Shown: positions 40-62,152, counted from the stretch's first letter. The stretch is 64,000 bases of DNA from a virus (IMGVR_UViG_3300028833_000003), one strand, 5' to 3'. Notes: generated by a model not told the origin, from the letters alone. Translations and numbers: made by a program.

Positions 40-3000
40 TTAACCTGCTGCTTCTGCTATACCATTAATTGAACCATTACATGTTCCATGTTCTGGGACA
101 GAAACTGAACATGCACCACTAACATGATGCGCATGTGATTTATTTGCTTTGTTACTAATATCGCTTTCAGTTTTAGTAACTCGTGTTTCAAGCGATGTTA
201 CACCTGATTTTATTTCTTGTGCAGTTTGAGCCGCGCTGTCTGCGGTTGATTTACTATCTTGCATCATGCTCCAGATGTCATTTTTAGTATGCTCTCCATC
301 AAATGATAAACCTTTGCCTATAATTTCATTTAATCCCTCTGGACCACCGGCAAGTGCCTAAATGACTTTTGTTAGATTACCCATACTACCATTTATTTTA
401 CTTGCCAATGATGAAATTTGTCCCGCTAAATCAGCCAATTTTTGATTAACATAATTTAATGATGCATAAATGCCATCTGGTCCATAACAACCTAAACCAG
501 CATAAACTTTCTAAGTAGCATTAACCCACTATGCTGCTAAATTCCACTTATATAATAAACCATAAATTTCAGTTGAATAATTAATTAAATTACTAGTTGG
601 TGTTAAAATGATATGCTATTTACGAGTTTCTTCACTATCACTCGCTGTTTCAGCATAAGAAATAACATTACCTTCATTATCGACATATTCTTTCCATCCT
701 GCTACGGCAGAAAAACCTAAATATTGATGGTCATGAGAAAGATTATGCGCTTTCATATATGAATTGTCAGTATTTAAAATAAAACGTAATTCAGAACCAT
801 ATAATACATAATTACCAGAAACAATCTTATCAGCATCAGTTAAAGTTATTTCAACACCTTCCGCGGTCGTACCAAGCCCTTGCTCTGTATCCCATGTTGT
901 TGGTAACTATGTGCGACCTAAAATTGCCATTAATACATCATTCTCAGAATAATCATATGTATGACTATCAAAACCATTACCTACTTGCTAACGAATTAAA
1001 CCAGCTGTAACTTTTGTAGTTCCACTACTATCTGAGGAATATGTCGTACCACTGTAACTACTTGGACCCAACGTTACTGCGCTTTTTTGATTCCATGTAA
1101 TATATTCAAATGGTCCGCTATAGTCCTGACTTGAAATTTTAAATCCGACCAATTCAATTTCACCATTATCATCATATACACCAATAGATACTCTATTTTG
1201 TTTACCATCTAATACCACATTATTATGATAAAGATTAATAGTACCAGATTGACCATTTAATTCAATAGCAGGATAATAATTCGTATCATAAATAGTTTCG
1301 CCCCATTCATCTTTTGCAGGCACCATTACTGGCTAATCATTTTCATCTACCATAGGCTGATTATTATCATCAACAGCCTATACCATATGCACTTCACGTT
1401 TCATACATTCGCCTAAACGAATTGTACCTTTTGTACCGTCAATTGCTATGTTATATCCACCGGTCTATACATAAGTCGGTCCATTAACATGTGGTTCAAT
1501 ATCAACGACATACGACTCTAATAAACCATTATGATAATACTCAAGAGGAATTTGTGTAGCATATACAATGTGTCCAGTTTCAGCATGTATCTCATATGGA
1601 ATATCTGGTAAATCAATACGCCGAAGCATACGATCGGCATAATGAAGAGTTGGATCATAATAAAATCCCATACGCGCAAATGTATTTTCTGCTCCACCAG
1701 CACCACTTTCTAACAAAATAGATTTATTAAGTAAAGCAAAATAAGGGTATTTAACGCCTGCGCTGCCGTTAATCATGCCTACATCTAATTCTGCAACAAA
1801 TGAATTAGATTCTGTACGAATATATTGTCCTAAAGAATTCTTTTTACGACGACCAGTTTCATCATAAACATAATCCTACAATCTTATTGTACTGTATAAT
1901 TTTGTATCTGTAAAACCCCAGCCACCAATAGTACCACTTTCAGCATATAAATCACCGTTATAATCTACACTAAAAGTGCCTCGATTCTATTTAGACATTG
2001 GTTGTCCTGCTGGACCACTCCAAATATAATAATTACCTACATCATCTGCATTATTTAAACTACTACTTGAATTTAAAGAAGCATAAACTAAATCAATTTC
2101 TTTTTCATGTTCTTTTAAATTGATAATTTCTCCATTATTTATATAAATAAACTTATATCTGTATTGCTCAATATAACCATCAGTATATAATATTTTATGT
2201 AAAGGAATCATTGTATTTAAATAATAGAAAATATTTGTTAAATTTTCTGGCTAGACCCATCTGCCTTCTTCTACTTGTACTTGCGCAACATCATCTCTAA
2301 ATAGTAGATAATTAGATTTTATTTCACCCTCAGCCTAGTGTGTTGCAATGGCAGGGAAGAAATGCTCTAATAATGTTGGTATTTCAGGATATTCATTTCG
2401 TAATATAATTAATAAATATTTATGAACATACTATAAAATTGACTCATATGTAATACCAATCTAAATACCACTAGTTAAAACTTGCGTCGTAGATCCATCT
2501 TGTAATGTAATAGAAGAAGTTAATAATTTATTAATTTCTGTTAATAAACTATGATCCTCACAAATCATGCCAAATTTACTTAAATTATCAGGCGCTAAAT
2601 AGATTTCTTTAATAAGATATAAATATAATTCTTCGGCAAATTCTCTATTAGTAGAAGTCTTATTTCCAACTCCTAGATATATTTTACTATTATTTTTTTT
2701 CTTTGTCAAGCCTGCGTCAGTAATCTACCAGCCGCCGATATCACCCCAACCAGCACGAATACCGCCGCTCATAAATACACCACGATGTGGATCAACAGCG
2801 AATACATCTTTAGTTTCTGCTATTGACAATAAATCATTCCAATTTACATTCGCTGCATTTATGTCGCTCTTTTCACTTTCAGTGTATAAAAAATAAGGGC
2901 TATATCCTTTTGATTTAATATCATATAAATTATCAGTAATTATATCAGTCTTTTTAGGATTTAAATTAATATAAGACGTCATGTTAGCGTTGCTAATAAT

Positions 3001-6000
3001 GCCAGCATGCTTATTAATATAAATACGTCCTGCGCCAGCAGCACCAAAAAATGCTTCACCGCTAGTTAATAATCCATATGTTTGTGCGCCAGCCTTAAAA
3101 CCATAAATACCAGGAGTATCAATACTACCATCGTTAATATCACTAGACCAATCACCCATCAACATACCAGTAAAGGCATTATTTGAATCTTTAGAGCCAA
3201 CGACAATACGTTTAGACAAAGATGTATTGTTATTATTATCAATGGTAATTTCTGTACCGCCCCAAGCATTTACTAATGAAGAACAATAAACTTGCCGTTC
3301 AAATACAATTGCTTGAGTAACCCAAGTACCATCACGCAATTTTACACTTAAATAAGCGTGTGCATCTCGTAATTTGTCTTCCCACTAAGTATTTTCACCA
3401 TCTACTAATAATAAAGAATAGGTAGTGCCCAATTCAGAATCATTAGCTTTAATGCGAATCCAATTATCTACATTTAAAGCATTCTCATAACTGCCAGTAT
3501 CTAAATTTATAAAATAATTAGTACCGATATTATTTACGATCATACCAACGCTTGTATTTAAAGCATCTGCAATACTATCTGCATCGCGATATTTGAAAGT
3601 TAAAGACCATACTGGAGCCATATCTAAAGTGACAGGAATATAACCTGTTTTCAATGATGCTTGATATTCATCAACAATTGCTTCTTTTACTTCACACTCA
3701 TGATCAATCAATGCACGTTGTTCAGTTACATAATTAAATCTTTGATCATTTTCTTCTGGTATTAACTCCGCATTTGCATCAATAACAGCATAACGCTAAC
3801 GCCGCCATGTCCAATTTGCATATTCTAAAGATGGATCAAATTCAGTGGCATATTCTGCGTCAGGCAAACGAATTGCTCTACGCAATTCAATTAAATTAGT
3901 AATAAACCCACGTGCATCATAAATAATTTGCTTACCAATAGATGCCGCCATCTCTTCTATATTAATATAAATATATCTATTATTATGATCTACAACTTCA
4001 AATGCACTTTTATCATAAGCTGGATTTGTACCAGATGAATTAAAAGCGATACGATTTGGACAAGAAATACTATAACTATTCACCTATAAATTATCTAATG
4101 CATCTACTGCTTTCCATACCTAAAATGGTACAGAATAATATAAGCTATAATTTTCTAATCCATCAACTCGCAATGTAATAATAGGCGGTACAATTGGCTA
4201 ATCTACTGTAAAGAAGTCCATTGATAATGGCTAAATATATAAAACACCAGAAGCATCAATATTAATCATATAATAATTGTCTTCTGTATTAGCATTTAAA
4301 CCAGAATTTAAATACCAATAAATCTAACACTTTGCACGTTCTTCATCAGATAGCGGTAATCCATTTTTCTTTCTGATATTAGCAATTAAATCATAATAAT
4401 AAGTACCTAACGAATCTTCTGCAGTGCCTTCTAAAGTAATCATATGATATTTATCTAATTTTAAAATTGGCGCATTAGTTAATTCATTACTATGATCTCT
4501 TACCATAATAGAGATATTATAATTACTACCCATCGTACTGGCATTACCAAAATGGAATTCGCGTTCGGCTATATAATTAACATTCCCATAATTGATATTT
4601 AATGCTAATCTATCTATTGGTCGCGCACTACTTAAAGAATACGAATCTTTAATTCTAAACTCTAATACAAATACTGTAGTTTCAGGCGCAAAATGAAATC
4701 CAAAACGTTCATTCACTTGCTCAGTAGTCATACGATGTAAATAATTAAACATCGTTGGTGAATCAGGATTAACTTCATTCGCAGTAATATCCATATTCCA
4801 ACTGATTGCATACGCTGCCGTTAAGTCATCAGCAATTTGCTAACGTACTGATGCAGTTAATTGTGTAATTAATTCTTCTTTCCCCAATGTAGCATAAGCA
4901 TCATCAAATGAAGTAATATTTAAATAAGCAGCTATAACTTTTTTATCCCAATCGTTTAAATAGCCTTGTGCTACTTCATCTGTTATTGTTGGATCATATG
5001 CTTTTAATTTTTCTAAGTAACTTGATTCTGTTGCAATTGCTTCACGAATAGGCTAATTATATTGTACAATACTATAATTAGCTTCTTCTTCAGAATCATC
5101 AGACCGCATCATCAAAAACGCATAATATGTAACGCTGTCATATGGGATTCCATCTGGATTTTCTATTGCGTGCCCGCGTTCATCAAAAACAAAAAATTCA
5201 GATATACTATCATCAGCTATAAATGATCCACCAAATAAATTTTCTGATGGTACTTTTTCATTTAAACTTTCGTATCGTGGTCTTACTAATTGTACTTTAA
5301 ATTTAGAATTTATGTCAGAAAATTGTTCTACTAAGTAATCAGTAGATTGATTTGTAAAAGTAACTTCATTACTAGTAATAAAAGTATTATCATATGAAGC
5401 AATCGCTTTAAATGTTTGTTTTGATTTTTTAGGATTTAAATCGACTTCTGCCAATGTAAATAATTCTTCTGGTTCATCTAATACATATTTAGCTGGTTCA
5501 TTAGTTTGTTCTTCAACAGTATAAATTTCTGATAAATACTAAAATTCTACTGCATTTAATGGTATAGCAGTATTACGATCTGCAGTGAATGGTAATGTAT
5601 CGCTTTCAATTAATACTAATTCATTACTATCGTTTCGTGTTACTAATTGATAATCAACTAAATTAATCCAATAGCCGTAAGGGTTATTGTTATCCAATTT
5701 ATCAGCAAAGTCTTGTATCTCTACTGCATTACCAAAATTTAACGTCCAACCTGCTATTTCATCATTCCAAGGCTATAAAATAGTCGGCGCATTACCAGTT
5801 CCGCCAGAAGTCAATGGTATATAATAATAAGCACCTACTTTTGGTTGTACAGAATGATCAAAACCATACATATTAGTTAATGTATAAATCATTGAATCAA
5901 ACTTCCAATAAGTAGGTAAATAACCAGGAGCTTCCACCGTAGAATCGTCACATTCAAAAATTGTCTGACCTAATTTAAATTGATATAATGGATGCAATAC

Positions 6001-6993
6001 CCAAGCATCAATATCTTTTACTGGATCAACTATATGCTCCTATCGTTCTATATGGCCAATATACTATACAACTGGCGCCCATTTTTCATTATCATTAATT
6101 AAAATTGATTTTAATTGTGCATAAGTCACAACTTTTGTAGCAGTTTTATCAATACTACCATCAGGTCGTATCGTATCATTTAATGGTTCCCATCCTAACC
6201 CAGCCTATTTATCAATAGTGCCGGTATAATCGGTATTTTTTCTGAACCATTTAATTTTATAACGCTAATTTAATAAATCTTTATATTGATTAATTAAATT
6301 ATATAAATCTTCCTACTACTAAATAGTTGTAATATCATCAAATAAATTCTCTGGATCATATAACATCTAATTAAAAATGTCTTTAAAAGCATTGCCATCC
6401 GCCCAATCTTCTTCAGTCATATCATCAAATAAAGTTAAACCATATTGATTATATAGGGCTTCCATACGATTATATAAATAAGTTAAATAATTCTTATTAA
6501 CTAAAATGCGCTCAGTGCGCTAAACTGCTTGAGCTTCTATTAATAATGCTTCTTCCATCATACGAGTTAGCTCTTGCAATTCATATGTTATTGCTTCTAA
6601 GCGAGCGATATAAGCTGCTAATTGTTCATTTGCATCTTCAATTTCTTCTTCTACATCTTGTCGTATTGCAGTAATGAAATCATTAAGCATTTGCGTACAA
6701 TTCTTTTTAAATTCTTCTTCTATATAAGTATATACATCTTTATCCTGTTGTTTAGCTTCTTCTTCTAAAACTTCACGCTCTTTGCCTTTTGTTCTATCAT
6801 AAATAACATATGCAGCATAACGAGCCGCTTGCTCTTTTGCTTCACGTATTGCACGATCGCGCGCCAAAGCCTAAGCAGACAATGACACTGACGAATAAAT
6901 AGTTTTTGCAGTTTTTTCAAAAGCGGTAGTATTAATACTTAAACCACCGCCACCAGCTTCTAACGGTACAGTAACAAAACTCAATAATCTCAC
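40..6993 (-). CDS. giant tail-tip/fibre protein (Tal position), 2317 codons with TAG read as sense
   Basis: 12 ORF-track fragments (40..267 to 6520..6867) share one frame. All interruptions checked are rc-TAG (358, 511, 529, 616, 907, 988, 6871). GTG 6991-6993 overlaps the upstream TGA (GTGA). True stop is TAA 40-42. Last gene after the tape measure. Confidence 0.75.
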
Positions 6994-9900
6994 CCCAATC
7001 TAGAGATGTCCCAAGACAACTTAATTTTTGCAGGTTGCCAAGCACTAAAAGTAAAATGTCGTTCTTCTTTTATTGGTTTTTGCATATACTCTGCTGCTTT
7101 TTGTCGTACTAATTCAGCAGCCAACTATTCTTGCATTTTACCATACTAATAAAAATCACGTGAGGTCGGTTTTTTTACTGTTGTCGTTGTAGTTTCATTC
7201 CCATCTGGATCAGTAGTAGTAACGGTAGTTGTGCTTTGTTGTTGCAATTTTTTTTCTTGTAATGCTATCTAATAATAGCAATATAATATCTATCGAATTA
7301 AAGTATTTACTAAAGAATCGCCTGTTCCAGTAATCATATAACCAGAAGCTACTGATGCGTGCTCTGCATCTTTGATAATTGATTTTCCTGGACATAAAGC
7401 ATATAATCTTAAAAAATGTAAATGCGCCGTACTATCAGGGTTAATTACCATATTAGGAGAAGTTTCATAAGAGCGCATTAAATAAGGATTTGCAATTTTA
7501 TTACAAAAAACATCATCAGTAGCAAACATGTCTTCTGTAAAAATAATTTCGTCTTCAAACTACATTAATTCATTAACAACCGCAGTGGATAAAATATCTA
7601 AATTATATTTTAATAATAAAGGATTATTAGTCTAATCAATCATAATTAACTGTTGTAATTTATCACTTAATTTTGAACGAGCTTCATCAATTTCTCTTTG
7701 TGTATATAATGTGATATTATTTAATACACTTAAATCAGCAATTGAGTCAATAGTTGCTAACTAATTTTCTAAGCTCGCTAATTTAGCATTTAAAGCATCA
7801 ACCGCAACAGTTATATTGTCTTGCTCTTCTGTTAATTCATTTTGTCTTGCGGTAATTTTTTCACGTTCTAACTAAATTGCTCTACGTTCATAAATAAGCC
7901 ATCTATTTACAACGTCAATAATAACTTTTTGTTTATTCGCGCGCGTAGCATCAAATGGAGTATTATATAACTCACGATAGCCTTCAATTAAAGCACTTAA
8001 ATCTTTTTCATCATCACGGCTATAAAATAATGCACGTTCAGTTGGCTATAATTCAATTAATGTTTGCGTTTCAGCATCCATCTCCCAAGAAGGGTAAATA
8101 TAAATACCGTTATTTACATCTGCTTTTACCCAAATAGCTTTTAAGTTACGAGTTTCAACTTGGTCTCTTAATTCTGCCCCACCTAAGCCATATTCAAGAG
8201 GTTCTTCAGTATATAAAATTAATTTTCCTTCTGCTAATTCCTAAACTGCAAAACCTAAACCTAAATATGGATTATGTAATGCTAATGTCTCTGGTACCGC
8301 AGCCTCGCAGCCTTCAATTAAGTCATCATAAGATTCATTACTTCTGACATATAAAATTGTTTCATCTACTCCAGGTAAAGCATATTTATATTCTACTGTC
8401 ATATTGCCTTCGGCAGACCATCCAGGAATTAAATTATTTGCTAAATCATAACTATCAAAATTCTAAAAAACAAATAATGTAATTTTACTAATTGAAATAT
8501 AGTCTTCAATATTTAATAATTTCTATTGAGAGTATGGAATAGTATAAGCATAACTATTACCAATAAATTCCGCATTTGTAAATTCGTCATCAAAAATAAT
8601 ATTATTTTCTTCATTAATAATGCCATATTCATTAGAACCGGTATCAATCAAATGAGCATCTAATTTACGCCATAAATCATCATAATGAATATCTAAACGA
8701 GTTAAAGCTAACTATTTATTATATTCATCATTGGCATATTGTTCTGTAATCGCCGCAACGTCAGCCGCATATTGTGCTTCTAATGCAGCTTTACGTTTAT
8801 TATATTCATCCGCAGTGTAAGTGCTTGTAGAAGATTCTTCATCAGTTGTTTTTTTAACGCCTTCGACCACAATTTTTACACCATAAGTACCTTTTAATCC
8901 AGGATATTGATTTAAGAATGATTCTACATCTATCTATAAACCAGCTTTAGTAAAACCTTCTATTGTTGCCGCGCCATTAGCAGGAACAAAAGAACATAAT
9001 TTAGTAAATAATTTACTGTAATGACCAGTTAAAACATCATAAAATTTTCTATTAGCCCAAAATTTATATGATACTTCTGGTCCGCCGCAAATAGGTGTTA
9101 TACGATATTCATTATAAATCTATTCTAAAGTACGTGTTTTTGCATATTTGGCTTTAAATTGTAGCCAAGCCTAAATGATATTATCACGTACTTCATCACT
9201 TACTCCTTCTGTTGTGACCATAGCAAGCATATCTGGATAAGCTAAGTCTCTCGTTAATTTTTTCCAATCAAACACTTTAGTATTTAATGATTCCCATTTA
9301 GAAGTTAAATTTGTAATAAAATTATTAATGCTAGCATACTAATGTGCAGCATTTTTAATTGTATGTAATGTGCCATTTTCTAAATAGTTATAATCAGCAT
9401 TATCATCTATATTCGTTGTATCAGAAAATTTTGCATATTCTTGTTGATAGTATGCGGATAATCTAGCATTATCTTCCTATAACCAAGCAATACATTGCTC
9501 GCGAGTGTTTTCTGTATAAGCCGGATCGGCTTCAATTGCACGTCCAACTTGCGCGACCAATATTTGTAATTCTGATAACGTATAATATGGTGCATGATTC
9601 TAACTCAAATTATTAACAGCATTAGTTAAAGCAGCATATTCGTGGTGTATGCAATCATAAATCGTATTCACATTATCAAAAGCGATAAAATTATTCATAC
9701 GCTATTGAATAATAGCAATTTTTTCTTCACGCATAGTTTCGATTATACGAGTACATTCATATGGAGTTATACCCCATACATATTCTTTATCTTGATTCTA
9801 CTCATAACGATGCTATTTTTTTAATTCAATATCTTCTTCTGCGTTGCCTAAAGCCGCTAAATCAGCAATATAAACAGGAACACAACCAGTTAATAAGCTA

Positions 9901-10259
9901 TATAAATCTTCAACCTCAAGCGCAGCAACCTAAACGAAATCATCAAAAGGCCATTTAAAATTATACGCCGCACTGCTACCTGTCATTAAACGACTTACAA
10001 TGCGTTTCTAATTGTCCCAATTATTCTATGGAACTAAAACTTGTACCTATTCGCCCGCGAAAAATGACTATTCTGAGTATGCTTCAAAACGAGTATTTTC
10101 ATATTCACAAGTGTAAATATTTTTATCCTCTTCCGAACGCGAAATGATAGTACAAGGCGAATAAGTTTTATCAAATTTTAAATCACTTAATGCTTTTTTA
10201 GTCAATAAATCAACTGCACTTAAAACGCCATTTGCAACACTATCATTAAAATTAGCCAT
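6990..10259 (-). CDS. large tail protein (distal-tail/Dit position), 1089 codons with TAG as sense
   Basis: ATG 10257-10259 lies 9 nt after AAAGGAG. Fragments 10068..10259 and 7290..7529 are in frame. In-frame stops checked are all TAG (7125, 7146, 7269, 7290, 7560, 7632, 7761). Real stop is TGA 6990-6992. Confidence 0.7.
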
Positions 10260-10301
10260 ATCTTCACACTCCTTTTACTCTATAACTCTATAACATAATG
10301 T

Positions 10302-10335
10302 AAAAAGGGCCGGATTCTTTAATAGAATCCGGCCC
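10302..10335 (-). terminator. rho-independent terminator/attenuator after the tape measure gene
   Basis: 11-bp stem GGGCCGGATTC/GAATCCGGCCC (10307-10317 / 10325-10335) followed by a T5 run on the minus strand. Confidence 0.7.
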
Positions 10336-10342
10336 TATATTT

Positions 10343-13300: not shown

Positions 13301-16300
13301 GGCGCCAGGTCTTGCTCCAGTAGTACCAAAATCTGGTACGGCAAGACTAGTTGTACCTGAACCTTGTAATTGACCTTCAGCAGTAGCAGTCATAGAGCCG
13401 CCACCTGGCATAGTAACTGTCATTGTTGAAGATGCAGGTACATCAATTTCGTTTTCTCCTGTAACTGTCTTTAAACTAGGAGGAGGAGGAGCTTGTACAG
13501 TATATGTGATTGTGCCATCTTGATTTAATACTGCGGTTATAGCATCTGCATTTTGAATTAAGTATTCTACAGGTATCTATACAGCCTAGCCTGTTTGTTC
13601 GCTTAAAGTTGCACTTAACTAATCTGCTAAACCTTGCATATCAGTTCCCATCATTGCCGCAGCGCCTTGGGCATTTGTTGCTACATACTAAAAACCATCA
13701 CCAACTTGCTAAACTGCAAGTCCCATATCATTTAATACTTCATTTGCTTCATCTAAGTTATCAAACTAACTAACAAATTCTTCAGCAGTTTGTTGAGTTT
13801 TTTCTCCCCACTTTGAAGCTAGACCCATTGTATCCATTAACTATCGCATTTGTTTATTGGTTAAGTTTAAATCTTTTTGCAATTGTCGTAATGCTTTGCT
13901 ATCTTCTTTTCCAAGTTTTTCACCAAATTTTAACCCGTTACCAATTTTGTTAAATTCTGCTAACTGTTCTGTACAATCTTCTATAGATTGACCTGTTTCT
14001 TGGAACATCTCATCTAATTGTTTAGTTAAAATTTTTGCTTCTAACTATTCCATTGCTTCAACAGAACCATTAGCCCATTGTGAAATTAAATCTTTATTGT
14101 CTTTGATAAAATCCATGCCAACTTCTGCATCTTTAAAGAAATTATTAACTATATCTACTAAATCTTGATAAGCTGCCATTTGTTCTTTAATAGATTTTGT
14201 TTGATCATCAATAGTAGCTAAAGACCCATTTTCTTCTCTAGCTTTTTGTAATGCATCTAATGCTTCTGTCGCTTTATTATATTCAACAGCTGCTTCAGAC
14301 ATTAATAACTTGTCATCAGCTTCTAAATCTTGCCATTCAAGCATTACTCCTTCATAAGCTGCAATACTTTCAACATAATTTTCCATTTCTTGTGCTTCAA
14401 TACCAAGCTATTGCGCATAATTAGATAATAAATCTGTTAATGCTTGTACATCACCATGTAATGCCGCAGTCACTTTGTCTCCTGCAAATGCTTCATTAGC
14501 TAAATCTGTACCCAATTCTACTTCATCAGTATTAAATAAAATTGGATGTTCTAATAGATATTGATCTACAGCTTCTTGTTGTGCTTGCTGAATTGCAGCA
14601 GCTCTTTTATTCATATATGCAAGTTCACTTTTTGTAACTGCATTACCATTATCATCTAAAAGTAATAAATCAGGTTTATTCGGGTTACTTATTGGTTTAG
14701 GATTAGTTTTATCAAATTCTGCACCTGCTTGTCTTGCTGCATCTGCTTGTATTCTTGCGATTTGGTCCATCTAGGCCTAATTTACTGCAGTATAACCCTT
14801 TTCCTAAAATTGCTTTAATTCCTCTGCGCTATTAGCGTAATCCTAGTTTTTAACAGTAACTTTTCCAGTCTTTTGATCAATTTCAAAACTACTTGCAGTA
14901 CCATCTTGTAACATTTTCATTGCTGCCATAATCTGTGCCGCTGCAGCAGCCATAGCGGCGGCTAACTGCATGGTTGCACTTTCCAATTGCACTAAACCGA
15001 TAGAAGCAACTGTGGCATCTTCACCAACAATTCCCATGTCCTATAAAGTTTTTAGTACCGCTGCCTAATCTGCTTCTGACATACCTGCGAGAGTGCCTTT
15101 TTCAATCATTTGCTATTGAGCAGTCTATAATAATGTCATTTTTTGCTATTGACTATCTATATATTGCTCACCTTCTTGTCGAGCTTTGTCAGCCATATTA
15201 GTTCGTTTGGTTTCTACTTCTGTAAATGCTGCCGCTAAGATTTCAGCCAATTCAGAATCAGAATGTACATACATTGAGTCTTTTATCAAAGATAATACCG
15301 CCTCGAAATCCTCTTGTTTAAGTGTATAACCTTGCGCAGCTTCACTAACATGATAATTACCAGTCTAATCTGCAAAAACAAGACCATGACGTTCTAATCC
15401 TGCCAAAATTGCTATACTATTTGCGTCTCCGGCTTTAGCTTTATCATTATATTCCCCAATTAATTTAGGATTTAATGATTTTCCAATAACATCACGCAAT
15501 TCACCGGCTAAATATTTATCTACATATTTTCTAACATTTTCATTATATTGATCTTTTGTAGTATCTAAATATTCACCATTTTCACTATTTAAAAATCTTT
15601 GTCGCCCTGATTTATTATAAGTATCAAAATCAAATGGTCTATAATCAACTCTTGCATCAGGATTGTTTATATGTTCTTTAATTTCTTGTAATGTTTTACC
15701 TGCTTCTAATAATGTTTGCACATATGCTGCTAATTCATCAGGACTACCGAACATTGATTCTAAGATACTTTTTCCTTCTGCTAATCCTGCTCTCATATCA
15801 GCAATTGCTTGGAATGTTTGCTCCCATAATTCTAGTACTGCTTGTGCAGTAGCTTGTTCCTAAGCATATATCGCCTGTAAACCACTTGCCCATACATCTT
15901 TAATAGTATTCCATGCTTCTTCAACGGCAAATTCAATTTCCGTTCCGCTATGATTTAAAGCTTGTTGTACGGCAGCTATAAATTCTTCGTTATGATTATT
16001 AATTGCATCTGCTAAATCTGTTGCTCCAACTGTAGCAATTGCAGAATTAACTGCAGCGTCTATATAAGATTTTTGAGCATCAGACAATTTATCACTTTGA
16101 GCATATTCTTTATTACGATAATAATCTTTTTCACGTTCAGCAATTGCTTTTTGCATTTCTTCATTGAAGTTCTCATTCATTTTTACCAAAGCATCAGCCC
16201 GAGCTTGTGCAATATCTTTTGGACGTTTAGAATCTTTTTCTGCCTACGCTTTTAATGCTTTTAAAGCTGATTGATATTCATGTTCAAATTCTGCTGTCCA

Positions 16301-19300
16301 TTCTCTTCCAGGCATTTCTTGTGAAACCAATTGTTTTGCTTTTTGTTGCAATTTTTGTTCTTCATCTTTCCATTTAGCTTCTGCATCATCTTGAACTTTT
16401 TGTTCATAAGCCTTCCAAATTTCCTAATCAGTTAATTTATCTTTATTATCTGGATTGGCAATATAATTATCTCTAAAAGCTGCGTAATCATATAATGTAC
16501 TATACTTTTGATGATCCGCATCAGTACCACCTAACAAGCTATCTAAAACATCTGTAATAGATGTATCTTCAGAAATTTTTCCAATAGCATTTTGAATTTC
16601 ATCTAAAATACTTCGTGCAATTTTATCTCCTAAACCATCAACATTTGGCTCCCAACCAGCAATAGACTATGACAAACCAACTTGTAGACCTTGGATTAAG
16701 AATGGAGCCAAAGCCATAGTTAGTTTTGATGGTGATGCAATACCAAGAGCATGAGCAAATGCTGCAATAATTTCATTACCAATTGGCGCAAAATACGCTG
16801 CCCAATCTACATCTGTATTTTGTAATCCAACAATTAAGCCATCCATTAAATGCATAGCTAATGACGCCGTTGCGGAATCAGAAGATTGAGATGCTTCATC
16901 TAATGCTCTAAAATAATTATTTAAAACATCAGGTGCCAAATCTTTAAAATCATCTGGAGACATGGCTAAAATTTTATTATACATAAGTTGAGCCTTATAT
17001 TTTTGTTCATTTGACCAAGTATTATGGCTACCTTCAGCATTAAATTCGAACATAGCACTTTGTATATCTTGTATACTCTATAAATTATTATGTCGCTATC
17101 TAAAGTTTGTCACATGCTATTTTTCATTATTAGCAATAAATGGTATATCAATTCCACCTAAATAAGAATACATTTTATCAAGATCTTCTGCGCCCTTTTG
17201 CTATAAATTGCTTTTATCCATCAAAGCTTTAACTTTAACAAAATATTCTTGTCCTTGTAACTGTTGTTGAATAGTGTTATTTCCAAGACTCGCATCAGCT
17301 TTAACATGATATTCATTTGGTTTATCTTCTGCTCCATCAATTGCTCCCTATAATTCTGCAGCTAAAGTTACTTCTGTACCATTTGCTAATCTTACTTTAA
17401 TTTCTTTGCCTTTTCCATCTGCTCCTTGTAATATTTGAGAAATTTGCGATTCAATAATACCAACATCTGTTTGAATTTTTAGTTTTCGTGGTTGACCATT
17501 TTCATCTGTTTCCATTTCCCATGCGCTTATTTTAGATGCTAAATTAAATTCTTCGCCTTTATCATCAACGCAATTAATTTTAATATTATGACCAGTTGCA
17601 TCAGTTTCATAACTTTTAATCGTTGCCGCAAAATCTTCGTCATCTTTTCGAATTAAAATAGTTTTAGTGCCTGGAAGCATTAAAGCTGCGACCGTTACCG
17701 TAAAACCTAATGTATTACCTGCATTAATTGCAATTTTCTTTTCCTCTGGAACACTATCTAATAAAGTAGTATAAGTTACTTCAAAAGTGCCATTTTCGCC
17801 ATCAAACATAATAGTTTTATGGTCTGTAGTAATTGCTGTATTATATTTTGCAGTATAAGTACCAAATTCACCTTGGAAAGTAATAGTTTTATCTTCTCCT
17901 GCAATTGCTGTATCATATGTTGCAGTATAGGTACCAAATTCACCTTGGAAAGTAATAGTTTTATTTTCTGTAGCGGTTGCTTCTTTAACTGCAAAAGTAT
18001 AAGTGCCACCATCACCTAAAAACGTAATCGTTTTATTCTCATTCATTATAGCTTCTTTTACTGTATCTGTATAAGTTCCAAATTCGCCCTAAAATATAAT
18101 TGTTTTATTGTCATCTAAAGTTGCAGATGTATAAGCCGCCTAATAAGTTCCATCTTTAGCATAAAAAACAATATTCTTTTCTCCATCAATCTGTACAGCT
18201 TCTAATGAAGAAGTATATTCACTACCTGTTTCACCAACAAATGTAATTATTTTTGAACCAGGATGACTTTCAATAGCAGCAATTGTATCACTGTATTCTT
18301 TATCATCAACAGAAAAAGTTACTTGTCCATCAGGATGTAAATTAAAATTCTCAACTGCCTAAACTACTTCTTTACCATCAACGGTATAATAAACTTGACC
18401 ATCTTGATAAAGCCAAGTCTAAATTTCATCTTCATTTTCCATCTCGGCTTCAACTTCAATTACACTATGGTCAACTGGAGTTGTATCTAATTCTGTTACT
18501 AATCCAACATATTCTTGTTGCCGTTTTTCTAAAGTACTTAATTGCATTAATGCTGCTTCTGTTGCGGCTACCATGCCAGCCTTAATTTGCTCTTTATCTC
18601 CATCAGCATTTTGAATATCTTCAATAATTTCTTTAACTCTTTCAGCTGCAACACCAGCTCTAATTAAAGATTGTTCTAATTCACCAATTGAAGAAAAAGA
18701 TAAATTATCTAATGAAGTTAAATTTGATTGAATGAACTAAATCGCACTTTTAGCCGCGTTAATTTTTTCATCGTCCTAACTAGTTTGACTATCAACTCGA
18801 GACTATATTTGTTCCATACGCTAGTCATTTAATGCACGCTCTTGAGCTTCGATTTTTCTCTACTAAATTTGAACCTGAGTATCATCATATCCTTTTTCAT
18901 CGCGCATGTTCTATAATTCTTCTAGCTTTTGTTTCATTTGTTCCAATCTATATGTTTCTCGTTCTAGATCAGACATTCCTAGCCATTCCTCAAATGAGGG
19001 AGTATCAGCCTTATTTAAGCCCAATAATAATTGATTCATTGCTAATTCAGTATCTTTCCATTTTGTCGGGTCTAATTCTGCACCAGATAACCATTCTAAC
19101 TATTGCGATTTACCAGACGCAGTTTCAATAAATTTAGTTGCAGTTTGTAACGCCGTAGTAATATTAGTATATTCTGCTTCTTCATCACTTAAACTTGTTA
19201 ATAATCCTCTAAAATCACTATTGTTATTTACTGTACCTTTATAAGATATACCCCAATCATTCATATATGTACGTAAAATATCACTTGCAGAACCTGCAGT

Positions 19301-22300
19301 AGCATATTTGTCACCAAACATAGCAAGCATAGTATTACGTGTATCTTCGTTGTTTAATAATTTTCCATTTTCATCTATGTTTTCTGATAAAAAACGCTAA
19401 AAAGTACGCTAATGCTCCCATTGCTATTTAGCCTAATCAACATCTTCTACACCCATTCGTTCTTGCATAAAAGCATTCTATGAATCTGTAATAATAGTAT
19501 TTAAATCTACCATTCCATCTTCATATTGTTGCCACCAATTATCATAACCTGTGCTTATTTGCTCCATTAAAGTCGCCATTTGTGCGGCTTTTTCAGAAGA
19601 AGACATTTTATTCCATTCTTGAGTATTAAAAATTTCTCCTAATCCTAATAAATCACTTACTATTGGTAGCTATGCCGCAAAACTATCTATATCAAATTCA
19701 CCAGAATATCTATTACCCCATTGAGCCAATAAGCCTGTTGCAGTTTGTGCTTTTGCTTGTTGCTATAATAATTGAGGAACTCGTTTGTCCATTAAATCAC
19801 CATTATTATCTAAAAATGGTGCTATATTAGCCATATAAGACCAATCTTTATCAGTAAAACCCCACTGCTCTAATTTTTTCTACGCTTCTTCTTTTGTCAT
19901 TTTTTTATTACGAGTTGTCATTGCAGTTACAGCAGATTCTTTATTAGCAACCGTTGCATCTGCCGCAGCTATATCACTTTCTGATACACCGACTAATCCT
20001 CTGGCATAAGTAGTTACTAATTGACTAGCTTGTTTTTTAGCTGCTCGAGTAATAGCATCATTTTTATTACTATCTATGCCCCAGTCTGCTAATAAACCTT
20101 CAACTAAACTCTCCTATACATCAGAACTCCATCCTTCAACATTTTGTTGTTTTAGCCAATCCTAGCCTTTTAATTCTCTCATACTCTTAATAGCATTAAG
20201 ATATGGAGAAATCATTTCAGTGATCATGTAATCAATATCTTCAAATGATTGATCATGTACTAAAGCTTCTAACTATGATTTCATTCCAGGGTCTTCAATA
20301 GTTTTTGCTGCTTCTTTAATTGCTTGTAGCTAATTATAATAATGTAACAATGAATCTAAATCAGATTCAATAACTAAGTCATCGGCAGTTCGTGCCATCC
20401 CTGTTCCACCCGCGCGCGCACTACCGCCTAAGAATGATTGAATCAAATTATTTTCTTGATCGCCTGTTGCATTACCACTAAGCCAATAATCATATTTTCG
20501 ACTACCAGCATAATCAATATTAATACCATATTGATTAGCTAACATATCTCTTATATTTGCATTCTATAAACTTTTTAATAAACCAGATTGTTTCATATTA
20601 GTATTAAATGAACTTAATATGTCATTATAAACAACTCCGGTTTTATTCCCTTCATTATTATCTCTATATTTGTCTCCCATATTTTCTTTTGCTATTTTAG
20701 TAACCTAATTTTCTAAACCATGTTCTGCGCGTCTAACATCAGATTCTGCAGTTTCAATTTGTTGTTCACGTGCAGCCTCAATAGATTCTTGAATAGCTGC
20801 AGTTAATCCTTGATAATTACCAGTAAGTGCCATAACTGCAGCACCCTAAATGCCTAAACTAGATGCGATATCAGCTAAAGCACTACTATATTCTTGAACA
20901 GATAATGCACCTTCTGCAAACTATTTGTTTAATGAGTCAAAAGCATTACTATTAGTCATTAATTCTTGATTTGATTGTTGATGTTCTTCTAAAATTTTAT
21001 TTGTAGTTTCTGCCATTTTAACCATTTCTTGTTCACGTTTTTCTTGCTAATCTTTCATATACGTAAATACACCAGCAATTGCCATACCAGCCGCTTGAAT
21101 GCCTGCCATCAATGGTCCTTGTGTTGCAAATGTATTAAGTAATGAACCACCTGCACTAACAATAGAAGTTACACCTGCTAATGTATCACCACTTTCAAAT
21201 GACTTCATAATACCTTGCATAGAAGTAAAACCTTGAACTGCAGCCATGGCTCCTTCTGCAACTGTTGCCAAACCCTTAGACAATTTTTGAGCTGCAGCTT
21301 CACGAGCATTCAATGCTTGCTCTTCTTCATCTTCCATATCAAAGCCTGCAGTAATCTCTTCTTGGCCTACCTAACGACCATATTCCTAAGCTCTATGAGC
21401 AGAATCTTCACCAACAATGCTACGCATTTCCTGATAAGCTTCATCTAAGTCATCATCAATTTGATCACGTAAATGCTCTGCAATAACTCTTCCACGATCA
21501 GCTTTAGTAGCTTGATTTTGTTCATTAAAACCAGCACTTTCAAGCCAATCATTCATTTCATTTTCGTCTTGCGGTAAAAAATCACGTACTGCTTGAGCCA
21601 TTGGATTATTCTCATCCATCATAACAGACTCAAAACGCTCTGCAGCCGCTGTACTATCTGTGTCCTCATTAAAAATTTGATCTATCTATTGATTTACTGC
21701 ACCACGTAAAGCATTTCCTCTAGCTTCTTCTTGTACTCTATTACCTAATCCACGTATCGCTGTATTTTGTACATTCTTATCATCTGATTTAAAATCTGCT
21801 ACCATGTCATCAAGATCACTACCACTATAACCCTGATCAGCATAATAATTTAAAGCATTAATATAAGCATCATCACGTAATTTATCAGCAGTACCTGTAC
21901 CTTCTAATTCAACTAAAGAACCAATTGATAATTCTCTACGAGCTTCATCTGTAATATTGGCTAAATTAGTTTCATGACCTGCCATGGTTTGCTAACGCTA
22001 ATTTAAATAATCAATATGCTATTGTAAACGCGCAGCTTCTTGTCCACTCATATGCCCTTGTCGTAATAATAATTCTTGTTTAGCTATCGCACTTTCACTT
22101 CTTGCGTCTGCACTTAATAAACGCATTGTATTTGCAGTATTTGCACTTGTATCTGGTGTTAATTCACTTTCTCGTCTATCTAAAGCGCTATTATATTCCA
22201 TATCTGCCGATCTACGTAAAGTTGTTAGATTATCAAATAAATTTCGCTATTGAGTGCCTTGTGCAAATTTTTGAGCACCATACTAAGAAATTGCTTGCAT

Positions 22301-24001
22301 CCTTCCGCCATAATTATTTGAATTATTTTGCATATAAGCATTAAATTTTCTATAAGTAGGAATACCACCAATTGGATGCCCTTCTGAGCCTTTTGCTGCT
22401 TTCATGTTGCCCCATGCAGTCCGCAACGTACCACCTTTGCCAAAGAAATTTCCAAATGCCATGCTAATACCTGTTAATTTATCTAACATCTATGGTTTAA
22501 ATGCAGTCATCATCATCTAAGAAATTTTTGCTAATATACCAGGGATACCTCCAAGACCATTAACTAAACCTCTAACTGCAGATAACGCTGTTGCCAATGC
22601 ATTATTAAATCCAACAAGGAATTTATCATTAATTAAATCACCGAAAATAGCTTCTTTACTTGCTTGTACTCTTTGTTTAGATGCTTTAACAGAATCTTCA
22701 TAAATTTTCTGCATTTTTTCTAAGCTGCCAGCTGAATTTTGAGCATTTTGCAAATCTTTTTGATACGTATCCCAGTTTTCAAATAATGCCATTAATTGCG
22801 TATATTGACGTTTACCAGCAACAACCTGCGCGATAGCAGTTTTTTGCGCACTGCCCATGGTCTACCATTTATTACCAAGATCAGTAATAACATCGCCCAT
22901 ATCACGCATATTACCAGTAGCATCTAAAACCTATACACCAATAGAATTTAATGAGCTTGAAACTTTACCTAAATTAACACCGTCTTCTAATGTTTCACCT
23001 AATTTTAAGTCACCCATACGTGCTAAAATAGTTTTAAAAGATGTACCAATTGATTCAGCACTTTCACGAGTAACAGAAGATACAGTTGCAACAATAGAAG
23101 ACATTTGTTCCATACCGACACCAACAGTACTAGCAGTCGCGGCAACTTTCTATAAAGCTGTTGCAATTTCTTCCATGCTAGTAGCAGTAGTAGAACCTAA
23201 TTTTGCCATTACATCTACATAACCTTCAAGCTAATCACCGCCTGCTTTATAAGAATTCCAAACGGCGGTTAGCATTTCTGACATTTCCGCAGCATTAGCT
23301 TTGAATGCAGTATTTGCAGCCTTTAAAGTAATTTGTGCTTTCTTTTGTACATCTCTATCATTATCACCCTATTGATAATAAATTAATGCTGCATCAGCAT
23401 ATGCTTTTGTTGATGTACTTAAACTTTTTGCCATTACATTTGCTTCTTTTGCAAAATTGCTCATATCAGAAATAGATTTGCCAGTAACAACACGAATATT
23501 ATTTAATGAAGTATTTAAATTTTCAATATAGCTAACTGCTCCACTCATAGCAGACTATAAGCCATGAACCATTTGACTAGCTGCTTGCCATTTCACAGTA
23601 TTCATTAAAGTTGTGCCAAACTATGCAATAAGACCAGTCGCTTTTTGCGCGGGAATAGTTGCCTAAGTTAGAACAGAAGACAACTATGAAATTGCCTATT
23701 GTCCAGTTGTACCGGCGCGCTAGAAACTGGCAATTAACGTTTGAACATTTGTATTAGCACTCGCCAAGCTATTACTTAATGCACTAAAATTAATTTGCCC
23801 AGTATTAACATTAACTGCCTATTGTAATGCCTACTATAATTTTGCTGCTTGCTACGCGGCATCTGCCATATTTGTATCAATTTTTAAATTTAATCTACTG
23901 TTTTGCTGCAATCTTTGTAATGAAGAACTTAATTGTTCAACCTACCGCTATGCAGCACTGGCATCAGCCTAAATATTAATTTTATACTATACACCAGCCA
24001 C
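10343..24001 (-). CDS. tail tape measure protein, 4552 codons with TAG as sense
   Basis: 19 ORF-track fragments (10454..11134 to 22931..23113) share one frame and each ends in rc-TAG. Hand check of 11461-13156 and 22859-24001 found only TAG in frame. GTG 23999-24001 follows GAAAGGAG. The N-terminal third reads like a TP901-type TMP core. Stop is TAA 10343-10345. Confidence 0.8.
17747..18253 (-). repeat. seven tandem 72-nt (24-25 codon) coding repeats inside the tape measure
   Basis: The unit K-T-I-T-F-Q-G-E-F-G-T-Y-T... repeats seven times. DNA copies such as accaaattcaccttggaaagtaatagtttt recur at 17861 and 17933. Confidence 0.85.
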
Positions 24002-24038
24002 GTTGCAAACTCCTTTCTCTCTTTATATAATAAAAAAA

Positions 24039-24063
24039 TCGTCTAATATTATGTATTAGACGA
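24039..24063 (-). terminator. hairpin terminator/attenuator between the chaperone-position gene and the tape measure
   Basis: 10-bp stem TCGTCTAATA/TATTAGACGA with a 5-nt loop. There is a T7 run on the minus strand and a T-rich tail on the plus strand as well. Confidence 0.6.
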
Positions 24064-24075
24064 TTTCATTTTTTC

Positions 24076-24600
24076 TTAACCTATTTTATCTAAAATTTCT
24101 TTAACCGTAGTTAATTTTTCTGGGTCTTCAATTTTTTCAATTGTTTTATCAATATCATCTTTTGCAATCGCATAATCTGCATTAATCATATTAATCATAC
24201 CAGCTAATGAATTATTATAAGAAACAATATTATTCGCACATTTCTAAGCAGCGTCCCATAATAATTCATGTTCTCTTGTGGGAATTGCTTTAATTACACT
24301 ATCATAAACATGATTAAGTTCTAATGCATCAAATACTTTACTAATATTTTCTAATTGCTTATCAGTAATATTAATATTAGTATAATAACGAATTAATAAA
24401 ACTTTAAACCAAATTTCTAATCGCATTGGGTTATAAGCACCAGTAGAATCAATAGTATATGATAATAATTCACTAATCAACTGTGCTTTATCATCTACTG
24501 ATAAATACTAAATTACATTAATTTCTGTATCTCCTATTTTTATAATCACAGGTTCAACTGATTTAATGGGTGTTACTTTTGAAAAAGCAACTTTCGCCAT
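24076..24600 (-). CDS. tail assembly chaperone-position protein (174 aa)
   Basis: ATG 24598-24600 follows AAAGGAG. In-frame TAGs at 24508 and 24244. Stop is TAA 24076-24078. It lies immediately upstream of the tape measure. Confidence 0.55.
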
Positions 24601-27059: not shown

Positions 27060-27076
27060 ATGCGTTTCCTCCTTAA

Positions 27077-31934: not shown

Positions 31935-31954
31935 TGTCAATCTCTCCTTTCCTA

Positions 31955-62090: not shown

Positions 62091-62119
62091 TTGAAAATTT
62101 TAAAAAAATATTATATAAT
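62091..62119 (+). promoter_or_regulatory. class-2 promoter with conserved leader, copy B
   Basis: TTGAAA, 17 nt, TATAAT. Conserved block as in copy A. Both leaders end in TGGCAAATG. Confidence 0.65.
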
Positions 62120-62152
62120 ATATATGTAAGATAAATAAAGGAGATGTGGCAA

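Follow-up and report, generated by a model that had tools for sequence, protein, structure and literature searches.

The major capsid protein of the phage described here is 50% identical to that of the phAss-1 group ('Caudoviricetes code 15 clade'; OQ749652, BK046881, BK025033), human-gut phages of ~135 kb that read TAG as Gln in many structural and other genes (PMC10607447). phAss-1 has suppressor tRNAs, and recoded phages without them have also been described (PMC10607447). Its tape measure protein (TMP) has 3155 aa (3149–3209 aa in the group), and a single 2175-aa ORF follows. The cultured Enterococcus phages VRE9_1-4, EF1, EF5 and H1 (PP680568 and others) have ~140-kb genomes in which tape measure and tail genes are annotated, and use the standard code; in VRE9_2, the TMP has 2673 aa, and the genes after it encode a 661-aa tail protein and then a 2533-aa protein. 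Large siphoviruses of Bacillota, such as Psychrobacillus phage Perkons and the SPbeta-like and 949-like phages, have genomes of 115–165 kb and the standard code, and build the distal tail from several small genes; the tail of Perkons measures 380.6 ± 16 nm (PMC13245101). The precedent for a ~5000-aa TMP and an extreme tail comes from the Thermus phages P74-26 and P23-45 (Oshimavirus), which have 83-kb genomes, the standard code, a thermophilic Gram-negative host and a TMP annotated with a metallopeptidase domain. The TMP of P74-26 has 5006 aa and its tail is nearly 1 µm long (PMC10034513), and therefore tail length keeps pace with TMP length up to this range. Both TAG recoding and tape measures of such size already have precedents.

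Here we analyzed a 64-kb stretch of viral DNA (IMGVR_UViG_3300028833_000003, part of a ~140-kb genome; hereafter, the window). When its minus strand is read with TAA and TGA as the only stops, the first 24 kb hold three ORFs of 4552, 1089 and 2317 aa (gA, gB and gC), exactly the sizes given in the initial annotation. The features are as follows.

40–6993, minus strand: gC, predicted tail-tip or central-fibre protein, 2317 aa, 37 TAG codons.
6990–10259, minus strand: gB, predicted tail-tip protein (by position and homology), 1089 aa, 27 TAG codons.
10306–10336, minus strand: strong terminator-like hairpin in the gA/gB gap (ΔG −24.8 kcal/mol, z −6.4).
10343–24001, minus strand: gA, TMP, 4552 aa, 103 in-frame TAG codons, ~500 kDa.
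10346–13246, minus strand: conserved C-terminal TMP module, aa 3586–4552, defined by sequence collinearity with other TMPs.
13235–13282, minus strand: Gly11-Lys5 hinge, aa 3574–3589, where the variable middle meets the conserved C-terminal module.
13283–22375, minus strand: expanded lineage-specific middle, aa ~543–3573, mostly rich in helix-forming residues.
17282–18446, minus strand: beta-hairpin repeat cassette, aa ~1852–2240, replaced in the relative L008.
22376–24001, minus strand: conserved N-terminal TMP core, aa 1–542, with PF10145 at 22820–23446.
24035–24067, minus strand: terminator-like hairpin with U-tract between the 174-aa gene and gA (ΔG −14.7 kcal/mol, z −6.6).
24076–24600, minus strand: 174-aa gene upstream of gA, phrog_30570, no assigned function.
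25977–27098, minus strand: probable tail tube protein, phrog_2729 (virion structural protein), no TAG codons.

We consider it likely that the window comes from a gut siphovirus of Bacillota with a ~140-kb genome and TAG read as Gln (code 15), in which gA is one long TMP, gB and gC belong to the tail tip, and the tail extends to ~0.65–0.85 µm. Positions 40–24001 would be the distal half of its late operon. The description of the three ORFs as consecutive tail genes agrees with synteny in cultured phages: the order of tube gene (phrog_2729), 413-aa gene, phrog_30570 gene, gA, gB and gC has its like in VRE9_2 and Perkons, the portal-to-TMP PHROG order of VRE9_2 is largely that of the window, with a homing endonuclease beside the portal in both, and the tail layout of VRE9_2 resembles that of the window. 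The major capsid proteins of the VRE9 group are 35–36% identical to ours. Head, tube and TMP genes are contiguous in the window, whereas the phAss-1 record places the TMP module apart from the capsid module. Because the capsid protein is 50% identical, the TMP 23–31% identical at its ends only, and the tip genes and module order differ, the phage does not belong to the genus 'Phassvirus' (phAss-1, ctckW2, ct6IQ4) and is related to it only above the genus level.

The same trio of giant genes is found in L008, a contig from another sample with 96% nucleotide identity (4566/1089/2216 aa), and in the more distant L006 (4647/1089/2445 aa); in a further IMG/VR relative, the TMP ORF spans at least 3912 aa and is still open at the sequence end. 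Mis-assembly or a chimeric repeat, which the initial annotation had raised as a concern, is therefore ruled out by independent assemblies, and these are real genes.

Both terminator hairpins proposed around gA (at 24039–24063 and 10302–10335) are real and carry U-tracts. The one at 10306–10336 has a 13-bp stem with 8 G-C pairs and is almost identical in L006; so strong a terminator between gA and gB is unusual within a tail operon. The gene upstream of gA had been called the chaperone of the tape measure. Its position fits, as the 174-aa gene sits between the tube gene and the TMP like its homologue in VRE9_2, but its sequence matches only phrog_30570, so that it is a candidate tail-assembly chaperone by position only. 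PDB sequence and profile searches with the tube protein were empty or at chance level, and Pfam and PHROG scans of the ORFs in 40–64 kb were essentially empty.

On sequence grounds, gA is a genuine tape measure protein, as first proposed. It starts with GTG preceded by the RBS AAAGGAG and stops at TAA. PF10145 (PhageMin_Tail) matches aa 186–394 (94.5 bits, cutoff 33.2, E=1e-26), six TMP PHROGs (34405, 4211, 28, 1272, 4704 and 167; best E=9.5e-46) match within aa 7–542, and the alignments to the phAss-1 and VRE9_2 TMPs are collinear at both ends. The N-terminal core is 31% identical to that of phAss-1, 31% identical over 425 aa to that of Perkons and 23–25% identical to those of the Lactococcus 949 group. 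A tblastn search with gA hit 136 phage records, with every match confined to this N-terminal block, while megablast against GenBank phages gave no match and PDB sequence and profile searches were empty or at chance level. The recognizable core amounts to ~12% of the protein, and its earlier equation with the N-terminal third was overstated.

The remainder of gA had been described as long, helical and Gln/Ala/Lys-rich. The middle is indeed mostly rich in helix-forming residues, but the C-terminal ~960 aa are conserved as well, and the composition (A 11.5, L 8.5, E 8.1, Q 7.7, D 7.4 and K 6.0%) is Ala/Glu/Gln-rich; the enrichment in Ala and Gln stands, whereas the protein is not strikingly Lys-rich. 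The middle is 14–49% identical to that of the 4647-aa L006 TMP, has no BLAST match to the phAss-1 or VRE9 TMPs, and includes hydrophobic segments at aa 962–982, 1041–1059, 2090–2117, 2404–2436 and 3010–3031. It ends at the Gly-Lys tract, noted earlier as Gly11-Lys and present as G11K5, which has equivalents in L006 (G7K3), L008 (G11K5) and phAss-1 (SGGGGKGGGGSAPK, at the same boundary). Beyond the hinge, gA aa 3586–4547 align to aa 2088–3149 of the phAss-1 TMP (23% identity over the C-terminal ~960 aa) and aa 3595–4274 to aa 1659–2318 of the VRE9 TMP, and identity to L006 reaches 72%. This module contains a hydrophobic segment at aa 4484–4502 and the terminal motif GG.(x)YTG...PELxLN..DT.N(I/L)L ... 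FPNA.D..EI, common to VRE9_2, phAss-1 and other TMPs, and it was found in at least 400 IMG/VR loci; a protein search with the C-terminal 960 aa returned 1 match, from a word index that overlooks the L006 and L008 homologues.

Within the middle lies a seven-unit beta-like repeat block, as the initial annotation had it (aa 1917–2085; 17747–18253, minus strand). Six 24-aa units are in exact register at aa 1942–2085, a degenerate seventh begins at aa 1917, and a 72-nt tandem repeat at 17809–18037 is their counterpart in the DNA. The block is embedded in a larger all-beta region (~aa 1865–2255). In L008, otherwise 96% identical, the whole cassette is exchanged for an unalignable block of similar repeats. 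A DGR-type origin was rejected, as the two versions are unalignable and do not differ at adenines only, and no reverse transcriptase gene was noticed. The AlphaFold2 (AF2) model of the TAG-free cassette is all-beta (pLDDT 55.8), and Foldseek of this model against the PDB gave nothing below E=0.6. Only 4 matches to the cassette were found among 1.84 billion representative proteins; Pfam, including the MBG_2 model, had no match at aa 1850–2250, and phmmer gave a weak link to one surface protein rich in MBG_2 (16 short stretches, summed E=1e-14). The ~390 aa of all-beta repeats and a ~100-aa Gly/Pro-rich tract of gA lie outside the helical rule of 0.15 nm per residue.

The initial annotation favored a multi-domain fusion of a measure with ejection or cell-wall functions. 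Such a composite gA, in which one part measures and the rest serves ejection, the cell wall or adhesion, possibly after being cut at the Gly-Lys hinge, would predict a tail far shorter than 680 nm. Near-identical strains differ by a swap of the ~390-aa non-helical beta cassette, a pattern that fits a module in contact with the host better than a passive ruler. In addition, the boundary to the C-terminal module is marked by a conserved Gly-Lys hinge, and some TMPs are annotated with enzymatic domains (the note on the P74-26 TMP reads 'contains metalopeptidase domain'). However, the domain search that had been suggested, for lysozyme, peptidase and transglycosylase, found none of these in gA by Pfam, PHROGs or PDB sequence searches, the cassette is just ~8% of gA, and nothing lies outside the frame of ordinary TMPs, with whose termini those of gA are collinear. 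Because both termini are collinear with those of 2.7–3.2-kaa TMPs, the extra length lies inside one TMP and is not appended to it. With the absence of an enzyme domain by these searches, this leaves the enzyme-fusion reading unsupported, and length scaling holds over the whole TMP in the homologue Perkons, so that we rate a composite gA as quite unlikely. Recent tandem duplication as the source of the expansion was ruled out by self-BLAST of gA, gB and gC, which showed no large internal duplication. We thus prefer to see gA as one TMP, which would consist of a conserved N-terminal core, a lineage-specific middle of ~3000 aa and a conserved C-terminal part of ~960 aa.

This single TMP is 1900 aa longer than those of the VRE9 group and about twice as long as those of the Perkons, SPbeta-like and 949-like phages; the likeness to the Thermus TMPs is one of size. 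The 2439-aa TMP of Perkons corresponds to 0.156 nm per residue over the whole protein (tail length from PMC13245101), and scaling from relatives predicts a tail of ~0.65–0.85 µm for our phage. A tail of ~680 nm had been rated less likely than a fusion; with Perkons and P74-26 considered, the ranking is reversed and the long tail is the better supported. We infer both the tail length and the translation of gA as a single chain. By analogy with TMPs in general, the C-terminal module may dock into the tail-tip complex, the extended and mostly helical chain would fill the tube lumen, and its length would halt tube polymerization; upon infection, gA would be ejected and its hydrophobic segments could help form a channel through the envelope. 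At an assumed ~4 nm for each hexameric ring, such a tail would take ~1000 copies of the tube protein.

From their position and their homology to uncharacterised proteins, gB and gC are predicted to be tail-tip proteins, which may initiate assembly at the C-terminus of the TMP and bear the fibre. gB, with long helical inserts, has an ATG start preceded by AAAGGAG and a TGA stop, which overlaps the GTG start of gC as GTGA. gC is 38% identical to its 2445-aa L006 orthologue and has GGW-type fibre motifs, a C-terminal coiled-coil-like tail and a central motif (aa ~1210–1346) common to the proteins P0004 and P0006 and the 2175-aa ORF of phAss-1, which has no gB equivalent. Pfam and PHROGs revealed no known domain in gB or gC, and PDB sequence and profile searches were empty or at chance level; none of these detected a Dit domain in gB or an N-terminal hub domain (Tal/gp27-like, e.g. 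Pfam Prophage_tail) in gC, and a protein search with gC gave one weak match, again from the word index that overlooks the L006 and L008 homologues. By hhalign, neither protein showed significant similarity to the 661-aa and 2533-aa proteins of VRE9_2; gB aa 37–90 aligned to aa 31–84 of the 661-aa protein with E=0.07 and a probability of 0.8%. An AF2 model of P0001, 98% identical to gB, built from a 5-sequence alignment, was unusable (pLDDT 39.6), with five strands at aa 31–90 at a local pLDDT of ~60.

gB and gC together are collinear with single proteins of 1.5 kaa, P0004 and P0006, the former encoded directly after a 2855-aa TMP, and they would represent this tip protein of relatives, split in two genes and greatly expanded. 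The collinearity could also be taken to mean that some of the product is made as one fusion protein through −1 slippage at the GGGG-TGA overlap (G GTG AGA in place of TTG GGG TGA), which would recreate the single-chain tip protein; a run of four Gs followed by the stop codon lies at the junction, and gC is in the −1 frame relative to gB. We regard this as very unlikely, as plain translational coupling explains the overlap and the L006 genes are parted by TAA, a strong GGAGGTG RBS and ATG. Since L006 gC has its own RBS and ATG, fusion is not a conserved requirement, and a conserved gB-gC frameshift fusion was rejected.

The two-gene tail tip, like the single long gA, requires TAG to be read as sense. 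Under table 11, the largest ORF in 1–24000 has 232 aa. Over the 7958 codons of gA, gB and gC, there are 167 in-frame TAG codons and, contrary to what would split the ORFs, no in-frame TAA or TGA. ORFs of ≥300 aa cover 14% of the window with the standard code, 67% with TAG as sense and only 24–26% with TGA or TAA as sense, and the TAG-sense reading restores intact portal, TerL-like and TMP genes. Comparison of the window with L008 shows 19 TAG substitutions, 17 of them to or from CAG or CAA; TAG therefore encodes Gln. Synonymous codon differences from L008 far exceed non-synonymous ones in gA (285:65), gB (113:17) and gC (241:28), which argues for selection on the full-length ORFs. With 12 TAG codons within the first 113 codons of gA, amber suppression would be required to make gA, gB and gC; the tube, capsid and scaffold-like genes have no TAG codons. 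ARAGORN found no tRNA, suppressor tRNA(CUA) included, in the 64-kb window of the ~140-kb genome, whereas phAss-1 has suppressor tRNAs. A reading in which TAG does terminate translation and the region is a tract of decayed or fragmented small genes or pseudogenes, or in which the giant ORFs are a repeat-assembly chimera, might be argued from this lack of a suppressor tRNA in the window, from the GenBank annotation of phAss-1, which shows just small fragments across its TMP, and from a cassette that is unlike between two otherwise near-identical assemblies, but it is extremely improbable, as chance cannot give 7958 codons without TAA or TGA, the TAG exchanges are with Gln codons, purifying selection acts along the whole ORF length, the trio recurs in independent samples at 96% nucleotide and ~37% amino-acid identity, internal DNA repeats come to only ~2.5 copies of the 72-nt unit, and protein self-BLAST shows no large duplication.

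The standard code cuts this 24-kb module into pieces of ≤232 aa, and therefore annotation pipelines miss three proteins of 120–500 kDa. With 167 amber codons in the trio and none in the capsid, scaffold-like and tube genes, the phage offers a clean system for relating suppression efficiency to TAG use in virion proteins. The swapped cassette in an otherwise conserved TMP and the two giant tip proteins without known domains are targets for structural work. If the length rule holds, tails of ~0.7 µm would be a property of the clade, with TMPs of 4552–4647 aa and, in a third lineage, of at least 3912 aa. We know of longer tails only in the Thermus phages P74-26 and P23-45. This raises the question of how such reach benefits a mesophilic gut phage, for example through a thick capsule, a mucus layer or a sheath. 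Speculatively, the cassette could be an exchangeable specificity module, exposed after ejection to the envelope of the host or to its proteins for superinfection exclusion or defence, where these recognize the TMP, and swapped wholesale like receptor-binding domains; separately, the ~0.7-µm tails of the clade could be the longest known outside thermophiles. We think this reading rather unlikely. If the cassette has such a role, the tape measure would be a second, internal determinant of host range or counter-defence.

Under the standard bacterial code, the longest ORF in positions 1-24000 is 232 aa. Reading TAG as sense, with TAA and TGA as the only stops, brought 67% of the window into ORFs of at least 300 aa, against 14% under the standard code, and only 24-26% was covered when TGA or TAA was taken as the sense codon instead. 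This reading gives three consecutive ORFs of 4552, 1089 and 2317 codons (gA, gB and gC), exactly the sizes that the initial annotation had claimed with read-through, and a search of their 7958 codons for splitting stops found 167 in-frame TAG and no in-frame TAA or TGA. The two hairpins proposed to flank gA are also present, each with a U-tract.

10343-24001, minus strand: gA, 4552 aa, GTG start after AAAGGAG, 103 in-frame TAG, TAA stop
6990-10259, minus strand: gB, 1089 aa, ATG start after AAAGGAG, 27 in-frame TAG, TGA stop
40-6993, minus strand: gC, 2317 aa, GTG start overlapping the gB stop as GTGA, 37 in-frame TAG, TAA stop
24035-24067: hairpin and U-tract, dG -14.7 kcal/mol, z -6.6
10306-10336: hairpin and U-tract, dG -24.8 kcal/mol, z -6.4

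Twelve TAG codons cluster at the start of gA (23663-24001, the first 113 codons), at codons 5, 11, 18, 20, 50, 56, 57, 61, 94, 102, 106 and 113. Without suppression, translation of gA would stop almost immediately.

We compared the trio with a near-identical contig assembled from another sample (L008; ERZ12289770 NODE_494, 69.8 kb) and with a distant relative (L006; ERZ12202683 NODE_42, 140.5 kb). L008 shares ~96% nucleotide identity with the window over gC, gB and most of gA, and in L006 all three ORFs are uninterrupted, with 36-39% amino-acid identity to gA, gB and gC. At 19 positions an in-frame TAG occurs in only one of the window and L008, and at 17 of them the other sequence has CAG or CAA; TAG codes for glutamine. 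With TAG scored this way, most codon differences are synonymous.

Window versus L008, codon differences by gene
gA: 285 synonymous, 65 non-synonymous
gB: 113 synonymous, 17 non-synonymous
gC: 241 synonymous, 28 non-synonymous

The comparison shows that gA, gB and gC are genuine full-length recoded genes under selection. An assembly artefact, about which the initial annotation had been cautious, is ruled out by the recurrence of the trio in these two contigs from other samples, and pseudogenes are ruled out by the synonymous excess against L008 together with the open ORFs in L006. ARAGORN found no tRNA gene, suppressor tRNA(CUA) included, in the 64-kb window despite its heavy use of TAG as sense, so any suppressor must come from the rest of the genome or from the host.

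The assignment of gA as a tape measure protein (TMP) was borne out by a PF10145 match at aa 186-394 (94.5 bits, cutoff 33.2) and by matches to six PHROG families, each of which bears the annotation 'tail length tape measure protein'. A tblastn search of gA against GenBank phages gave 136 records, including Perkons, the Enterococcus group and the long-tailed Lactococcus 949 group, all confined to aa ~64-552. By local BLAST, gA aa 1-503 and 3586-4547 align with the TMP of phage phAss-1 (3155 aa, stop-to-stop) at 31% and 23% identity, the latter with residues 2088-3149, and gA aa 36-493 and 3595-4274 align with the TMP of the Enterococcus phage VRE9_2, the latter with residues 1659-2318. All three TMPs share the extreme C-terminal motif GG..YTG...PELxLN..DT.N(I/L)L ... 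FPNA.D..EI, which occurs at at least 400 IMG/VR loci. Because both ends are collinear with those of the relatives, the extra length of gA sits between them, in a stretch of ~3080 aa compared with ~1590 aa in phAss-1 and ~1150 aa in VRE9_2. The canonical core, initially placed in the N-terminal third, should be given as the N-terminal ~12% plus the C-terminal ~21%. Two features lie outside the N-terminal part:

13235-13282, gA aa 3574-3589: G11K5 tract
17282-18446, gA aa ~1852-2240: swapped beta-hairpin block (the cassette) with sharp borders, replaced wholesale in L008

The former is the Gly11-Lys tract noticed at first reading, and in all four recoded TMPs checked a Gly-Lys hinge marks where the conserved C-terminal module begins (G11K5 in gA and L008, G7K3 in L006 and SGGGGKGGGGSAPK in phAss-1). 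Hydrophobic 19-mers occur in gA at aa 962-982, 1041-1059, 2090-2117, 2404-2436, 3010-3031 and 4484-4502. Self-BLAST found no large internal duplication. A fusion of the tape measure with ejection or cell-wall enzymes, initially preferred, gained no support, as Pfam, PHROGs and PDB sequence searches found no lysozyme, transglycosylase or peptidase domain in gA. The alignments argue instead for a single tape measure protein with an expanded middle.

The cassette is the sole break in the 96% identity between the two near-identical genomes (window 17282-18446, L008 1637-2978); the protein identity falls abruptly from ~100% to ~15% over gA aa ~1905-2225 and then recovers. The seven-unit beta-like repeat described initially is present here as six 24-aa units in perfect register (aa 1942-2085) and a degenerate seventh from aa 1917, corresponding to a 72-nt tandem repeat at 17809-18037. 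Both versions carry beta-hairpin repeats, of different sequence (KTITFQGEFGTYT... in the window and DGT(V/I)xYTT..G..I...IE.YK.LS in L008). For the TAG-free part, AF2 gives an all-beta model of 17 strands at low confidence (pLDDT 55.8), which has no significant match in the PDB. A search of 1.84 billion representative proteins gave four matches to the cassette: its own fragment, a 73-aa fragment and two ~2370-aa proteins, one of which is rich in MBG_2 repeats and has a secretion sorting signal. To our knowledge, no cassette-like replacement within a tape measure has been described. It may serve in specificity or counter-exclusion, or it may simply be a spacer that tolerates recombination.

No match to gB or gC was found in Pfam, PHROGs or the PDB, and gB has four relatives among 5.8 billion clustered proteins. 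Two of these, P0004 (1524 aa) and P0006 (1557 aa), are single proteins that carry gB-like and then gC-like segments, in the same order in one chain. The N-terminal domain of gB (aa 9-113) has a counterpart in both, a second gB-like segment (aa 562-726) is found in P0004, and the central motif of gC (aa ~1210-1346) is found in both with an hhalign probability of 97-98%. P0004 is directly preceded by a 2855-aa TMP and has C-terminal Peptidase_S74 chaperone and tail-fibre PHROG matches. The gC motif is also present (probability 95%) in the 2175-aa ORF after the phAss-1 TMP, and in IMG/VR the gB-type N-terminal domain opens ORFs of 1616-1986 aa directly behind TMPs of 3133-3261 aa, in both standard-code and TAG-recoded phages. 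The overlap of the gB stop and the gC start (6984-6996) reads TTG GGG TGA / GTG. With a run of four G before the gB stop codon, a -1 slip at GGGG would allow gB to be fused to gC; however, L006 has TAA, then GGAGGTG, then ATG at this junction, so such a fusion is not conserved. We conclude that gB and gC probably constitute a split and expanded tail-tip protein, which would dock on the TMP C-terminus and carry the fibre. The AF2 model of gB (pLDDT 39.6) is too low in confidence to judge a Dit-like or hub-like fold.

The TMP-gB intergenic segment (10260-10342), with its hairpin (GGCCGGATTCTATTAAAGAATCCGGCC then a T-run), is nearly identical in L006 (9920-10000), where the proteins on either side are only 36-39% identical to those of the window. 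We suggest that this hairpin may be a selected RNA element (terminator, attenuator or processing site), or may reflect a recent exchange.

PHROG matches outline an uninterrupted minus-strand late operon, listed here in four blocks:

First block, minus strand: sigma-factor-like gene, TerL-like gene, homing endonuclease, portal
Second block, minus strand: scaffold-like gene, major capsid protein (phrog_4088), connector genes
Third block, minus strand: tube-like virion protein (phrog_2729), 413-aa gene, phrog_30570 gene
Last block, minus strand: gA, gB, gC
35691-36047: homing/HNH endonuclease, 118 aa (phrog_9084), between the TerL-like and portal genes, 3 TAG

VRE9_2, a cultured 140-kb Enterococcus faecium phage, has largely the same PHROG order, with a homing endonuclease gene at the same place. 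The closest relative of the capsid protein is on an unannotated human faecal contig (54% identity), followed by phAss-1 of the 'Caudoviricetes code 15 clade' (50%), the Enterococcus EF1/EF5/H1/VRE9 phages (35-36%) and SPbeta-like Staphylococcus and Bacillus phages (~25%). A Bacillota host is suggested by capsid homologues (51-59% identity) in MAGs labelled Lachnospiraceae, Bacilli, Erysipelotrichaceae and Clostridia, by the AAAGGAG ribosome-binding sites and by a G+C of 31-35%. Only four late genes lack TAG entirely, namely the probable tube, the major capsid and the scaffold-like gene and a neighbour at 31955-32704 (25977-27098, the probable tube; 30879-31940; 31955-32704; 32726-34063); in all other late genes, TAG makes up 23-75% of the putative Gln codons. 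The pattern is compatible with a bias against amber codons in the virion proteins made in the largest amounts. At 40100-64000, G+C rises to 0.38-0.47, the GC skew changes sign, and short ORFs with few TAG codons lie on both strands, with almost no matches in Pfam and PHROGs. At 62111-63955, each strand has an ORF of more than 570 aa, the two overlapping; a weak PHROG match (phrog_18912) was obtained for the plus-strand ORF only.

The Perkons TMP (2439 aa), whose N-terminal core is 31% identical to that of gA, accompanies a measured tail of 380.6 +/- 16 nm (PMC13245101), or 0.156 nm per residue across the entire TMP. In the Thermus phage P74-26, a 5006-aa TMP goes with a tail almost 1 µm long (PMC10034513). 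By scaling, the tail set by gA is predicted to measure 680-710 nm, or up to ~850 nm on the P74-26 ratio, with an uncertainty of roughly 10% from the beta block and the Gly/Pro-rich tract. Such a tube would need ~1000 subunits, assuming ~4 nm per hexameric ring, and the TAG-free tube, capsid, scaffold-like and 31955-32704 genes are consistent with this demand.

Gut phages with stop-codon recoding are already known, as is the combination of TMP and tail in P74-26. TAG-to-Gln recoding with TMPs of 3149-3209 aa has been described for phAss-1 (PMC10607447). The three-gene layout already exists in cultured Enterococcus phages (in VRE9_2, a 2673-aa TMP, then a 661-aa tail protein and a 2533-aa protein). 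The gA-gB-gC module is an extreme case of this known kind of system, and what is new is the degree and the details: tape measures as long as 4552-4647 aa, a pair of orphan giant tip proteins and a swapped TMP cassette. At least two lineages have TMPs of that size, and in another (L029) the TMP ORF runs for at least 3912 aa and has not yet closed. The TMP C-terminal module recurs, 38-48% identical, in seven TAG-recoded IMG/VR contigs (L029-L034 and L041; 55-159 kb), whose TMP ORFs run past 3450 aa without a stop until the examined sequence ends, implying that very long recoded tape measures may be a trait of the clade.
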